A stretch of DNA of 64,000 nt from Spirochaetota bacterium (GCA_003246895.1 QKCL01000067.1:17995-81994); one strand, 5' to 3'; positions 26,420 to 41,522 are shown, counted from the stretch's first letter. Numbers and translations are program-made. The notes: generated by a model not told the origin, from the sequence alone.

Positions 26420-27919
26420 TTGGGTGTGTCAGGGGTGTGTCAGAGAAACTGTGTAAATATTCAGTGGGGGACGATAATAATATTACTGGAGGTTTTCCGG
26501 AAGACCTGGGCCGGAGCAGCACTAGCTGGAGCAGCCGGGTCAGTAGCAGGTGGCATAAAGATGGGCGGAATGTATCTGTCAATGAAGAACCGTATAGGAA
26601 GATTCGCAACCGGCATACAGAATGATTTTAATGATTTTACAGATGATATGGGCAGGGCAGGAAGTGCAGTGGCATCAGCAGCCAGCACTGCATGGAAAGG
26701 AATAACAAGTGCAGAAAGTGCAGCGTGGACAGGTGTAAAGAATTTCGGACAGAGTGTTAAGAACAAGGTTGCATACGGAGTTTATGGTACAGATACAGAT
26801 TCTGATGTATTAAATGCAAAATTCCAGGAAATGTGGAACTCAGATGCAGTAAGTAAGGTAGTAACGGGTTATGGTGCATCTTCAATGAGTTATGGTAAAT
26901 ATCTTGAAACTAATCTGAAAATTACTACAGACAGTAATGGTAATACGGTACTTGCAACTAAAAAAGCAACAGCCTTTGGAGATAGAGAAAATGAAGATGA
27001 TACTTCGGGCATGAGTGAACAACAATTTGAAGAAGCTGATTCAAAACAATCATTTTTAGGAAAGTTCTTTCACAATAAAACAATAATGTGGAAAAATGCA
27101 TGGAGTACAACAGTCCGAGCATCAGAAGAGGGGCTTTCTGGATATGAAAATATAACTGAACGAGAGTTATTCGGTAATGATAGTAGTGGAGAGGCAGCTT
27201 TTGATAAAGTTGTGGGTAGTCTTAAAGACAGTCTTTTGCAAGAAGCCAAGGGTGACTACATGGATAAGGTTCTCAATTCATGGGAAAGTACAGGTGGTTT
27301 TTTAAATGGTGACAATTTGTTGCAAGCAGCAGCATTAGGAGGAGCATATCTTTACTTTAGTGAAGGTGCAGGTTATACTCATACATTCAAAAATGGAATA
27401 ATTGCAGGTGGAGAATTTGGCTGGGACAACAGTGACCCTAAAAATAACTGTTCAGGAAAGGTAATTATTGGCGGTGAAAATAGCGATGTAACAGCTAAGG
27501 CTACATTTGAAGCTGGAAAGGAAATGGATAATGATTCTGGAAAAATTAATAACCGATTTGATAGTAATGTTGAAATTCAGACAAAAGATTTTGGTGGTAA
27601 ATATGAATTTGAAATTGATACAAGTAAAAATAGCACTACAATAACCAACTCATTGTCTGGCAAGTACCAGATTAATAAAAATATCAGTATCTATGGAGGG
27701 GGAAGTTATTCCAGCCAGTCTGATGGTTCAAATTCATGGAATATAAATTCGGGATGGCAATATAGCGGTCAATACAGAGTCAATGCTGACATTGGTTTTG
27801 GTAAAAATTACAATAATAGCAATGAATATTCTTTGAAGTGGAGTTTTAGTACAAAAATAAATATTTTCGGAGATAAAAAGACAGTAGATAAATTAAAAAA
27901 GATAGGAAAAAATAATTAA
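26420..27919 (+). CDS. Headless polymorphic-toxin-like protein (Gly/Ala-rich helices, then a beta-rich C-terminal domain)
   Basis: First ~25 codons read through the IS-like end; then AGAALAGAAGSVAGG and AGSAVASAASTAW; AT-rich C-terminus of alternating beta strands; followed by a MORN gene. Confidence 0.55.
   Translation: MGVSGVCQRNCVNIQWGTIIILLEVFRKTWAGAALAGAAGSVAGGIKMGGMYLSMKNRIGRFATGIQNDFNDFTDDMGRAGSAVASAASTAWKGITSAESAAWTGVKNFGQSVKNKVAYGVYGTDTDSDVLNAKFQEMWNSDAVSKVVTGYGASSMSYGKYLETNLKITTDSNGNTVLATKKATAFGDRENEDDTSGMSEQQFEEADSKQSFLGKFFHNKTIMWKNAWSTTVRASEEGLSGYENITERELFGNDSSGEAAFDKVVGSLKDSLLQEAKGDYMDKVLNSWESTGGFLNGDNLLQAAALGGAYLYFSEGAGYTHTFKNGIIAGGEFGWDNSDPKNNCSGKVIIGGENSDVTAKATFEAGKEMDNDSGKINNRFDSNVEIQTKDFGGKYEFEIDTSKNSTTITNSLSGKYQINKNISIYGGGSYSSQSDGSNSWNINSGWQYSGQYRVNADIGFGKNYNNSNEYSLKWSFSTKINIFGDKKTVDKLKKIGKNN
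26433..26460 (+). mobile_element. Isolated IS256-family-like terminal inverted repeat, no transposase
   Basis: GGGTGTGTCAGAGAAACTGTGTAAAT fits the GGGnnTGTCAG..TGTGT pattern I recall for IS256-family ends; its first 11 bp are tandemly duplicated at 26422-26432. Confidence 0.55.
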
Positions 27920-27960
27920 TAAGGTTTAGCGTAATTTAAATATTATAAGGATTAAAGAAA

Positions 27961-28692
27961 ATGAAAATTGCAGTGAATATTCTATTTAGCGTAATGTTTT
28001 TAGTTTCAAGTATTAGCTATGCGAAAGAAAACTATGTTCAGGATATGAAATACAGAGGTGGCAAGTATACCGGAGAAGTGAAGAATGGCCTGCCGCAGGG
28101 GAGGGGGACATTTATAGATAATGATGGCAAATATGAAGGTGAATTTTATAAAGGCAATTTTCAGGGGAAGGGTAAGATTTTTTTTAAAAATGGAAGCACT
28201 TATGAAGGTGAGTTTAAGAATGATAAAAAAGATGGAAAAGGTGTATTTATATGGATAGAGAATGGTAAATTTTCAATGAAATATATTGGTCAATATAAAA
28301 ATGAATATAGGCATGGCAAAGGTATGTATATAATGGCCAATGGTGTAAAATATGAAGGTGAGTTTAAGAATGGGAAAGAACATGGGAAAGGTATCTATAT
28401 ATGGGAAAATGGGGAGAAATATGAAGGCGAGTATAAGAATGGAAAGAGACATGGTAAAGGAATTTATTATTGGCCATCAGGGAAAAAATATGTTGGTGAA
28501 TATTTTAATGGAGCAAGGCATGGGAATGGTACAGAAATATTGCCTGATGGGAAAAAATTTGTTGGACACTTTGAAAATGGCAGAGCTACCGGTTATGGAA
28601 CCATGTATGATAAAAATGGTAAAATACTTGCCCAGGGTTATTGGAGAAATTATAAATATATAGGGAAAGAAAAACCGAAAGATTTAGAGTAA
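27961..28692 (+). CDS. Exported MORN-repeat protein (candidate immunity protein)
   Basis: Signal peptide; about 7-8 repeats of YEGEFKNGK.HGKG.Y.W.NG. Confidence 0.88.
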   Translation: MKIAVNILFSVMFLVSSISYAKENYVQDMKYRGGKYTGEVKNGLPQGRGTFIDNDGKYEGEFYKGNFQGKGKIFFKNGSTYEGEFKNDKKDGKGVFIWIENGKFSMKYIGQYKNEYRHGKGMYIMANGVKYEGEFKNGKEHGKGIYIWENGEKYEGEYKNGKRHGKGIYYWPSGKKYVGEYFNGARHGNGTEILPDGKKFVGHFENGRATGYGTMYDKNGKILAQGYWRNYKYIGKEKPKDLE

Positions 28693-28737
28693 TTCTATTT
28701 TTTAGGAATTAATTGAAATAAATAAAGGAAACCCTCA

Positions 28738-29160
28738 ATGATTAAGAAAAAAGTAGATATAAAAACAGAAACAAACACAGAGGCACCAACCATACCAGAA
28801 GTGTACAGCAACGCAGTGCTAACAAACATGACACCATACGAGTTTGAAATAACCCTTGGACTTGGAAGCAGCAACTACGAGGGTGTTAAACCTGTGGTTA
28901 ATGTGAGAATGAGCCCTCAGTTTGCCAAAGGCCGACCCATCACTTCCTGTGATGTGGTCGGCATCAACCTCATCGCTTTCTCAGGATGAGATGATGCAAA
29001 GCCGTTACAGGATGTAACAATTGGTTTTGCCTGAGAACGTGAGTTCAGCAACCTGCTTCAACAGAACGTAAAGATGTTTGAAGAGAGGTTCCGGTATATG
29101 AGGAGTAGATGCTTGTTTTACGGAACAAGTTCTTTGAAAACAGTTCAGGATTACACCAAG
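28738..29160 (+). pseudogene. DUF3467-like gene interrupted by a 111-nt insertion
   Basis: PEVYSNA..TPYEFEITL..VNVRMSPQFAK (to 28929) resumes in frame at 29041 as EFSNLLQQNVKMFEERF; the insert carries two in-frame TGA codons. Confidence 0.7.
28930..29040. mobile_element. 111-nt structured insertion (MITE/REP-like, or RNA element)
   Basis: Almost fully paired; see findings. Confidence 0.6.
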
Positions 29161-29251
29161 CCGATTTAACACGAGGTTGAATCGGATGTTGCCGAGGACA
29201 AGCATGGATGCGTCCGCAGGCAGAAATAATATTTTTATGAAACAGTAAGGC

Positions 29252-29321
29252 AAGCCGACCCAGGGCGTCTGACTGGTCGGCTTTTTTGTGCAGCTTTTTG
29301 GGTCGTTGCCAAAAAGCTGCA
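29252..29321 (+). terminator. Terminator-like hairpin with U-tract, then a perfect 13-bp hairpin
   Basis: AAGCCGAC..GTCGGCTTTTTT; TGCAGCTTTTTGG-N7-CCAAAAAGCTGCA. Confidence 0.7.
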
Positions 29322-29423
29322 GAACGAATATAGAAATATTCAGAATTGATATAATTGAATGAAAATCAGAATTTGTCTTAAATAGTTCCTGATAAAAAAG
29401 ATTAAATTAAAATTTAAAAAGTT

Positions 29424-29662
29424 ACATGCAACATCGCGTGAGTGATGGAGCCGATATGCCGAAGGCATACAAGGCGAGAGCGCGACCCGCCGGGAAACAA
29501 ACCAGTTTGAGAGAAACAAGAGAATGAAGGTACTCATTCCAGGTGCGCAGACATTGTGCGCTTAAACAATTGGGAAAGGGACACGCCCAACCTTTACTCA
29601 GGTCTGCAGGTCGTCGATTCTATTTTGCCACTTCCTGTGGCAGAATCGACATCAACCTCATC
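29424..29662. ncRNA. Candidate structured non-coding element of unknown class
   Basis: GC-rich non-coding block with at least six consecutive stems, right after AT-rich DNA. Confidence 0.4.
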
Positions 29663-29666
29663 CTGA

Positions 29667-30347
29667 TATAGCTATGTAGATTTAGAGTCCCAGTGGCTAA
29701 ACAGAAACATAGAAGAGGTCTTTGAAAAGAACGGATTCTTTGAGGAACATACAGAGGTAGAGTTCGACCGGCTTGGCAGGAAGTTCGGAGAGTATTGCCA
29801 GTACTGGATGGCCGGGGAAGCCCTGAAAGCCGGAGCCTTCTACAGTAAGCCCATTTTCCCCAATGGACCGAATATGTTTCAGACAGCGGCCATAGCAGCG
29901 AGTTTATCTGGGCAGGCATGGCTTGCAGAGGCAATAAGTGTAGCAACAAGCGCAATACAGGTAGCAGACGGGACTATGTCGTGGAAGCAGGCAGCATTTC
30001 AGGTTGGAGTAAGTGTGGCAACATCTGCAATAGGTGCAGGAGCAGCCGGCTTTGAGAGCAAGGCCATGCAGAACGCATCAAGTATGATGTTTAGAAAGAT
30101 GCTTGGCAGTGACGAGAAGATGAGCTGGGCCACAGTGGCAAATACAGACCCCATAGGTTAAATGGCCAGTAAGTTTTTCAATGGATTTGTAACACCTGCG
30201 AAGATATCACCGGAAATATATTTTACACTATCGACAGGAACAAGAGATTTCTCACTTTCCTTCGACATGACAGGGGAACCATACTATGCGCCCGCCTTCA
30301 ACATTGAAGCCGACAGGCATGGATGCCTTATGCAAAATTATTCATAA
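29667..30347 (+). pseudogene. Internal fragment of a large Ala/Gly-rich toxin-like protein
   Basis: Frame open from 29667 without a start; TAA at 30159-30161; same frame continues MASKFFNGFVT. Confidence 0.5.
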
Positions 30348-30835
30348 CATCCTGTTATGCTTTTTGCAGGCAGTCATCGTGTCTGCACTGTCGCCGATTT
30401 CAGGATGAAAAAGAGGCGGCTGGCACGGCCGAATCATTTATATTATCCACCTGAAAATTTAATTACTGAATTCCTGACCTGTAATTTTCTGTAAATAGGG
30501 ATATCCTTTGGTTCTGATAAAGGTTATTGTGCCCCTTTTCAGGGCTGGGGGTTCTCCTTAACTGTGTCATTAACTTTATGAAATTCCTACGAAACAAGGT
30601 AAATATCATATATTTACATATGAAATTTGGGGGTACTAGAAGAACTGATAGACTGTGCAGCGTCTGACTCTGAGCTTAAAGATCAAAAAATGCAAAGATA
30701 AAAAATCTCAGCAAACATTAAGTGCAAAAAAAAGTTGATTTTTTGCCCAAATTGCTTTTAATATATGAATGCAAAAGTTATGTGAAATTACATGCCCGAC
30801 TGAGTCCATGTATCCATCACATCTAAGAGGTAATC

Positions 30836-41218: not shown

Positions 41219-41522
41219 TAAATTTGTCTCTATTTTTTTATAAAAGAGGTCCCCCCGGGGATTTCCCGTCAGGGGGGATCAAAGAGGAAGCAAAAATGTT
41301 AAGTCATATAGGTAATCAGGTTTACCTTACGTATTAAGTAACAGTTAACTCTATTAAGATAATGAAAAAAACCGGAAAAAAATTTTTTTAAGGAAAAAAA
41401 GAGAAAAATTTTTATATATGAACCTGGGGCTATTGTAACTGCAGATATTTATTATTTGTAATATTCCTTAATTGCCGATAAATAAAGAGATCTATTATAA
41501 TAGCAATTAAATCGAAAATACC

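Follow-up and report, generated by a model that had tools for sequence, protein, structure and literature searches.

Two nested copies of a hairpin-forming repeat module in a decaying DUF3467 gene of a Spirochaetota bacterium

The 64,000-nt stretch of Spirochaetota DNA analysed here (the window) carries an interrupted gene of the DUF3467 family. The flanking genes are ordinary chromosomal and metabolic ones: they encode a phenylacetate-CoA-ligase-like enzyme, an ACT protein, indolepyruvate oxidoreductase-like subunits, a MORN-repeat protein, an SH3 protein and LeuA. In this lineage, DUF3467 genes are preceded by a conserved gene pair (window 26420-28692; positions 3-2450 of contig L142; positions 3-1436 of contig L143), which consists of a large Gly-rich protein without a Pfam domain, 499 aa long in the window copy, and a protein of about 200-240 aa that carries MORN repeats in the window. 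The open reading frame at 28738-28989 comprises 64 DUF3467-like residues, followed by 19 residues read from an insert and a TGA codon. The features of the locus are listed in Table 1.

Deleting the insert in silico joins ...VNVRMSPQFAK directly to EFSNLLQQNVKMFEERF..., and the joined protein matches Pfam PF11950 with a score of 33.2 bits (E 5e-8), above the curated cut-off of 25, versus 13.2 bits for the N-terminal half and 12.4 bits for the unedited reading frame. Relatives of this protein were found at 22 loci in MAGs of Leptospirales and other Spirochaetota, as well as among dozens of database proteins. The majority are intact, with an ungapped ...RMSPQFAKEF... (more than 20 homologues are uninterrupted); a few are truncated or frameshifted. 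The closest empty allele lies on a JGI contig (L142, protein P0001; 94% identity at the amino acid level, 88% at the nucleotide level) and aligns with window positions 28737-28931 and 29041-29091, one G being common to both segments; nucleotide similarity to the uninterrupted homologues likewise ends at 28930/28931. Because the two segments of the L142 alignment overlap by this single G, the length of the insert can be set at exactly 111 nt; it keeps the frame, and its position is ambiguous by 1 nt. The initial annotation, which had described a DUF3467 gene split cleanly by a 111-nt in-frame insert, is therefore borne out by both the Pfam scores and the empty allele.

The same holds for its suggestion of a small DNA element without terminal inverted repeats or target duplication: relative to L142, no duplication longer than 1 nt is present at the insertion site, and a comparison of the two ends of the insert (GGCCGACC... 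and ...GAGAACGT) revealed no mutual inverted repeat. The insert is strongly folded (-46.9 kcal/mol, z = -5.0), none of 200 shuffled sequences being as good. It holds two in-frame TGA codons (28987 and 29032), which end translation after 83 residues, and TTTGCC occurs in frame at 28921 and again at 29026, all as first described. An independent Logan assembly (L025, SRR7216773) has an identical left junction and its contig stops inside the insert, a behaviour that is typical of assemblies at repeats.

Table 1. Features of the DUF3467 locus and its downstream region (window coordinates; R1 is the covariance model of the module)
Feature	Position	Strand	Sequence or evidence
DUF3467 pseudogene, 5' part (codons 1-64, ...RMSPQFAK)	28738..28929	+	Pfam PF11950; L142 2481-2674 at 88% nucleotide identity; homologues
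Outer module, 3' part	28930..28973	-	On the minus strand: (G)ATGAGGTTGATG, then stem GCCGACC/GGTCGGC around hairpin CATCAC-AGGAA-GTGATG
Inner module (56 nt, 1-nt C ambiguity)	28974..29029	+	R1 58.6 bits, E 5e-11, over 28971-29032; alignment
Outer module, 5' part (ACGTTCTCAGG on the minus strand)	29030..29040	-	Joined to 28973, recreates ACGTTCTCAGGATGAGGTTGATGCC
DUF3467 pseudogene, continuation (EFSNLLQQNVKMFEERF)	29041..29091	+	Aligns with L142 2674-2724 and homologues
Aberrant 3' end of pseudogene	29092..29169	+	Native ..GEIKVFK..stop missing; alignments with L142 and homologues
Separate single module, 570 nt downstream	29611..29676	-	R1 46.3 bits, E 2e-8
Two likely module remnants	30332..30431	.	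CATAACAGGATGTTATG on minus strand, TTTCAGGATGAAA on plus strand; hairpin scan and R1; weak evidence

A pattern search of 185,579 genomes for two small hairpins (CTCAGGATGAG ... ACAGGATGT) retrieved two things: CsrB-type RNAs of gamma-proteobacteria and a multicopy element in Spirochaetota MAGs, whose consensus is ACCCGCGTTCTCAGGATGAGGTTGATGCCAACGCAGGCACAGGATGTGCCGAATGCGTTGGCCC. This module starts with an invariant 5' box, CGTTCTCAGGATGAGGTTGATG, that carries a hairpin CTCA-GGA-TGAG (P2), and continues with P3, an 8-bp stem of free sequence. P3 encloses a second hairpin (P3a), ACA-GGA-NGT, with the loop CAGGANG; in other words, a covarying stem surrounds a ACAGGANGT hairpin. Among 45 aligned copies, compensatory changes were found in 10 of the 18 pairs of the model, namely seven of the eight pairs of P3 and three of the six pairs of P3a. 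The proportion of paired cells in these copies is 95.9%, versus 84% in shuffles and 24-39% when the partners were slid. We built a covariance model (R1) from 18 copies, window excluded, and ran it on the 64-kb window with filters off.

Members of the family are nearly all intergenic and occur in both orientations, several of them at contig ends, and one MAG (DAONAJ...) contains at least 10 loci with the exact module core. When metagenomes were scanned with the 17-mer TCAGGATGAGGTTGATG, the matches listed were mostly chance matches, with at least about 12 family members among them. In one variant (L160:257-329), an unrelated hairpin (CATCCCGATTTCATCGGGA) replaces the inner GGA hairpin, the box and the outer stem being kept. 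Rfam searches of the locus (E up to 10), of the whole window and of ten family loci returned no family at threshold, the sole resemblance being a weak one to Bacillaceae-1 on the opposite strand. No match was obtained for the first hairpin of the insert in an exact search of the 185,579 genomes, for the module in viral contigs, plasmids and phages, or for the module sequence in the literature searched. The family thus appears to be undescribed, and belongs among the small interspersed palindromic repeats of bacteria.

Comparison of the insert with this family shows that it is not the single 111-nt unit that had been assumed but two hairpin-forming repeat modules of about 55 nt, one inside the other. 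The inner module reads CGCTTTCTCAGGATGAG-ATGATG, followed by the stem GCAAAGCC/GGTTTTGC around GTTACA-GGA-TGTAAC; this last structure had been pointed out in the initial annotation, and it is real, being supported by compensatory changes among the 45 family members. The inner module lies in the GGA loop of the first hairpin (P2) of the outer module, in the opposite orientation. Accordingly, the insert read on the minus strand consists of ACGTTCTCAGG, 56 nt of inner module, and ATGAGGTTGATGCCGACCACATCACAGGAAGTGATGGGTCGGCC. Once joined, the outer pieces give ACGTTCTCAGGATGAGGTTGATGCC..., which holds the entire invariant family box CGTTCTCAGGATGAGGTTGATG and continues with its own P3 and P3a (the segment first described as a hairpin at 28931-28962, which together with ATCAACCTCAT makes up the 3' part of the outer module). 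The box of the outer module is exact after removal of the inner one, and that of the inner module matches at 19 of 22 positions (two substitutions and one deletion).

The scores obtained for the outer module are in keeping with this arrangement. R1 scored the minus strand of 28929-28999 at 26.6 bits, and when the inner module was taken out in silico, a split family-HMM match (18.1 + 3.8 bits) became a contiguous one of 37.1 bits. The nested architecture also accounts for other features of the insert. Both in-frame TGA codons derive from the conserved box (GGA TGA G) and its reverse complement, the second TTTGCC is the 3' strand of P3 of the inner module, and the 111-nt total keeps the frame by chance. 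As for the pseudoknot initially proposed, its pairings (TTCTCAGG with CCTGAGAA, and ATCAACCTCATC with GATGAG..TGAT) are the complementarity that two inverted copies necessarily display, and do not speak for a pseudoknot under selection.

The insert is not the only lesion of the gene. Right after FEERF (29091), the window gene diverges from all homologues: its frame runs into unrelated sequence (RYMRSRCLFYGTSSLKTVQDYTKPI, then a stop), and similarity to L142 returns only within the 3' UTR sequence of the latter (AACAGGTTCTTTGAAAA). Compared to L142, the window lacks about 85 nt that comprise the native C-terminus, the stop codon and the start of the 3' UTR. When a native-like -GI end was appended to the joined protein, its Pfam score rose to 36.6 bits. 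The window gene is, on this evidence, a pseudogene, an already decaying copy. DUF3467 genes are multicopy in these MAGs (five loci in CAZBFP), and other truncated or frameshifted copies exist. In L143, which comes from the same metagenome as L142, a DUF3467 copy with a 10-nt deletion is broken at the same left junction (GCCAAAG^, the caret marking the junction). There follow about 60 nt of degenerate sequence that resembles the outer module alone, has no R1 score, and ends in ...AACGT^GA. This degenerate copy, unscored as it is by the model, suggests that the outer insertion is the older of the two and the inner one a later event. L144 contains an N-terminally truncated DUF3467 pseudogene with a module at a different site (76.5 bits). 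There is no general link between DUF3467 and the module, since 22 other DUF3467 loci are devoid of modules.

The surrounding 2 kb of the window are similarly eroded. The separate single module, whose box shows three mismatches among its first six positions, sits exactly at the 5' edge of the similarity to a gene encoding a Gly-rich protein in L010 and L012 (tblastx start 29676). The window version of this gene (29676-30161) lacks about 110 internal residues and the normal start; it looks like a second eroded gene beside a module. Further downstream, R1 gave weak scores of 19.1 bits (30332-30368, minus strand) and 11.1 bits (30390-30431, plus strand); the corresponding CAGGATG hairpins, CATAACAGGATGTTATG and TTTCAGGATGAAA, might derive from two modules that once formed an inverted pair of greater age. 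Two consecutive strong hairpins are also found downstream of the pseudogene, at 29248-29325: the first (AAGCCGACC...GGTCGGCTTTTTT) looks like a terminator, and the second is GCAGCTTTTTGG...CCAAAAAGCTGC. The first of them has GCCGACCCA in common with the stem of the outer module, probably by chance.

The explanation that we favour, with a probability of roughly 70%, is that the insert represents selfish repeat DNA within a gene that is decaying, made of nested modules of a Spirochaetota-wide interspersed family. The outer module lies on the minus strand and separates codons 64 and 65 of a DUF3467 paralogue, and the inner module lies on the plus strand in the GGA loop of the outer module's hairpin; the outer one would have inserted first and the inner one would have arrived later. 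The module would be non-autonomous: because it cannot encode anything, an enzyme encoded elsewhere would have to move it, possibly as a folded single strand.

The hairpin loops of the module call for consideration of another explanation, according to which it is mainly a functional RNA, i.e. a two-site CsrA (Rsm) binding cassette of untranslated regions or small RNAs, its dispersal being secondary; the copies present at the locus might then change the expression of downstream genes. Both loops, CAGGA(N)G on short stems and about 28 nt apart, correspond to the repeat unit of CsrB; the loops are invariant whereas the stems covary, and some copies lie directly upstream of start codons (L032, L073). 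Moreover, the two-hairpin pattern that retrieves the module also retrieves true CsrB/RsmB RNAs (Rfam RF00018), from Psychromonas and Tolumonas, whose hairpin loops bear CAGGA(U/C/A)G. These CsrB/RsmB RNAs (L054, L061 and L050) score 71-77 bits with RF00018, and L054 and L061 each contain two adjacent copies. The CsrA of Leptospira recognizes GGA presented in hairpin loops, and homologues of csrB or csrC are not known in this genus (PMC8668096).

We nevertheless regard a primarily RNA-level function as unlikely. Each module offers only two sites, with no defined promoter or terminator, and none of the Csr/Rsm models of Rfam matches the modules. The orientation of the copies with respect to flanking genes is unbiased, with 17 co-directional and 10 opposed (p = 0.25). 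No strand is favoured within the stems either: with 9 G-T wobble pairs against 11 C-A/A-C mismatches, the former are not in excess. Finally, the copies of the window lie in opposite orientations within a dead gene. The invariant CAGGATG loops could reflect selection for RNA function instead of transposition; their conservation would be accounted for just as well by a protein that recognizes the hairpins in DNA form. With regard to orientation, a bias of about 18 to 4 counted by eye had been noticed at an earlier stage, and was dropped when the systematic count gave the above figures.

Returning to the module as selfish repeat DNA, its insertion behaviour can be examined at three kinds of target for which an empty counterpart is known: the DUF3467 coding sequence (L142), the P2 loop of another module (family consensus) and a REP-like element of related MAGs, CCCCC-TAAAT-CCCCC-GGA-GGGGG-AC. 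The latter is empty in L088, L094, L237, L239 and L291 and filled in L077, L099, L259 and others, where it reads CCCCCTAAATCC^GCGTTC...GCGTTTG^CCCCGGAGGGGGAC; the module is the only difference between filled and empty copies. All three kinds of target display no terminal inverted repeat and an overlap or duplication of at most one base (C). In the orientation of the module, the sites are AACTC^TTTGG, CTCATC^CTGAG and AAATCC^CCCGG, and all that they have in common is an (A/C)TC no more than 1 nt away from the 5' junction, as seen in three site types whose junctions are ambiguous by 1 nt. The filled host elements could have spread as composites instead of arising by repeated insertion. The REP-like element (CCCCCTAAATCCCCCGGAGGGGGAC) is frequent in related MAGs (L088:3304, L094:1489, L237:1651, L239:8945, L291:125 and others), with and without the module, and often forms inverted pairs about 25-30 nt apart, like REPINs. 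At 41251-41288, the window contains CCCCCCGGGGATTTCCCGTCAGGGGGG, the reverse complement of which resembles the host element in the form CCCCC-TRAAT-CCCCC-GGN-GGGGG-AC.

The best analogy for an enzyme that would move the module is provided by the HUH/Y1 transposases of the IS200/IS605 TnpA or RAYT type, which need hairpins, make no duplication and insert beside a short motif. Such a mover is suggested by three features: hairpin structure is selected for along with an invariant box, inverted repeats and duplications are absent, and insertion takes place in loops or unpaired C-runs. By this analogy, the enzyme could belong to the HUH/Y1 class, an assignment that we consider somewhat less likely than not. 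No transposase was found between paired modules, where only ordinary genes are present (a small multihaem-like lipoprotein in L094, a lipoprotein and an ACT protein in L088), nor among the neighbours of the module in the window, which are metabolic genes; L244 has a truncated module only. A 130-aa IS200-like Y1 transposase with an HIH motif is encoded at L195:3466-3858 (minus strand), beside a type I methylase gene and 2.1 kb from a module. It is the sole one among the loci examined, as searched with an approximate IS200 TnpA query, and the hairpins that flank it are unrelated to the module.

The main alternative for mobilization is a serine (DEDD) recombinase of the IS110/IS1111 type, because a single C is shared by both junctions and IS1111-type elements are known to target REP hairpins. 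The shared C, observed for both insertions of the window and for those in the host elements, resembles a recombination core, and such enzymes likewise generate no inverted repeats, a shared core base being the most that they leave. Nonetheless, no gene of this type was seen near any module, and 55 nt is very small for carrying donor sites. Movement of the module by this route, or by recombination between dispersed copies, appears rather improbable.

Comparison with known repeat families places the module close to several of them without equating it to any. Like REP/REPIN sequences, which are mobilized by RAYT (REP-associated tyrosine transposases), it is short, palindromic, mostly intergenic, present many times per genome in both orientations, and free of terminal inverted repeats and target duplication; it shares with them covarying stems and a conserved short box, and in related MAGs it lives within a REP-like element that occurs as inverted pairs. 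It differs from them as a two-hairpin unit of about 55 nt that has its own invariant 22-nt box and no GTAG-type REP head, and no RAYT gene could be linked to it. Furthermore, the nested doublet of the window is not a recurring mobile unit: searching the 185,579 genomes for the doublet-junction pattern gave only one match, in an unrelated Marinobacter gene. With the IS200/IS605-derived PATEs (palindrome-associated transposable elements) it shares the lack of inverted repeats and duplication, the hairpins near both ends and possibly insertion beside a short motif. The module is much smaller than described PATEs, however, the CAGGA(N)G loop is all that its two hairpins have in common, and no cognate TnpA with matching ends was found for it.

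Bacterial MITEs (Correia/NEMIS, ERIC, RUP, BOX) are likewise non-autonomous folding repeats of 50-150 nt that are often co-transcribed, but they are bounded by terminal inverted repeats and, in most cases, by a target duplication of TA or more, and the insert has neither. Rickettsia palindromic elements (RPEs) offer a parallel in one respect, as they are palindromic repeats of about 100 nt found in frame within conserved coding sequences. RPEs contain no stop codon, and their host proteins work with the element translated as an additional peptide segment; by contrast, the insert of the window contains the two TGA codons mentioned above, and its host gene is decaying.

An insert that keeps the frame, folds strongly and can be taken out scarlessly could in principle be removed or skipped during expression as a mini-intron, a self-cleaving RNA or a site of translational bypass, so that full-length DUF3467 protein would still be made, a possibility raised in the initial annotation with reference to the repeated in-frame TTTGCC. 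Several observations make this highly improbable. The Rfam search (to E 10) returned no intron or ribozyme family, only weak and unrelated chance matches, and the structure is already accounted for by two nested inverted repeat units. As for bypass, a landing at 29026-29031 would run straight into a TGA, and no codon pair matches across 28929/29041. In addition, the gene carries its second lesion: it has no native C-terminus or stop, and with the 3' end lost it is a pseudogene, so that removal of the insert at the RNA level is unneeded. The sister copies that bear a module have frameshifts and deletions, and nearly all other family members are intergenic. Equally improbable is an assembly chimera or one-off rearrangement, which the metagenomic source, the frequent misjoining at repeats and the Logan contig that stops within the insert might bring to mind, given that both junctions are base-exact with respect to the empty allele, that the left junction recurs in the independent assembly and in L143, and that the nested structure is internally consistent.

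A bolder proposal, to which we give a low probability, is that the module is a mobile cassette with a pair of high-affinity CsrA-type GGA hairpins, which would add to or soak up the spirochaete CsrA regulon, and/or the substrate of an undescribed enzyme acting on hairpin loops, into which it would insert folded single-stranded DNA. If it were true, a CsrA cassette would be spreading into untranslated regions, REP-like elements and other modules in spirochaetes, a phylum without an established Csr-type RNA antagonist.

A clean, in-frame and highly paired insert, as found here, needs no splicing or bypass: it is explained by a gene that is dead and holds a stack of two selfish repeats, and pseudogene is the proper annotation for loci of this kind. 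There is nothing unusual about the locus as such, and the family is of mild interest on account of its size, the fact that it inserts into hairpins, and loops that resemble those bound by CsrA. Now that 45 members, a covariance model and empty sites for three kinds of target are known, the module constitutes a small and tractable substrate for asking which enzyme moves hairpin elements without inverted repeats or target duplications, and it also permits testing whether perfectly conserved CsrA-like loops act.
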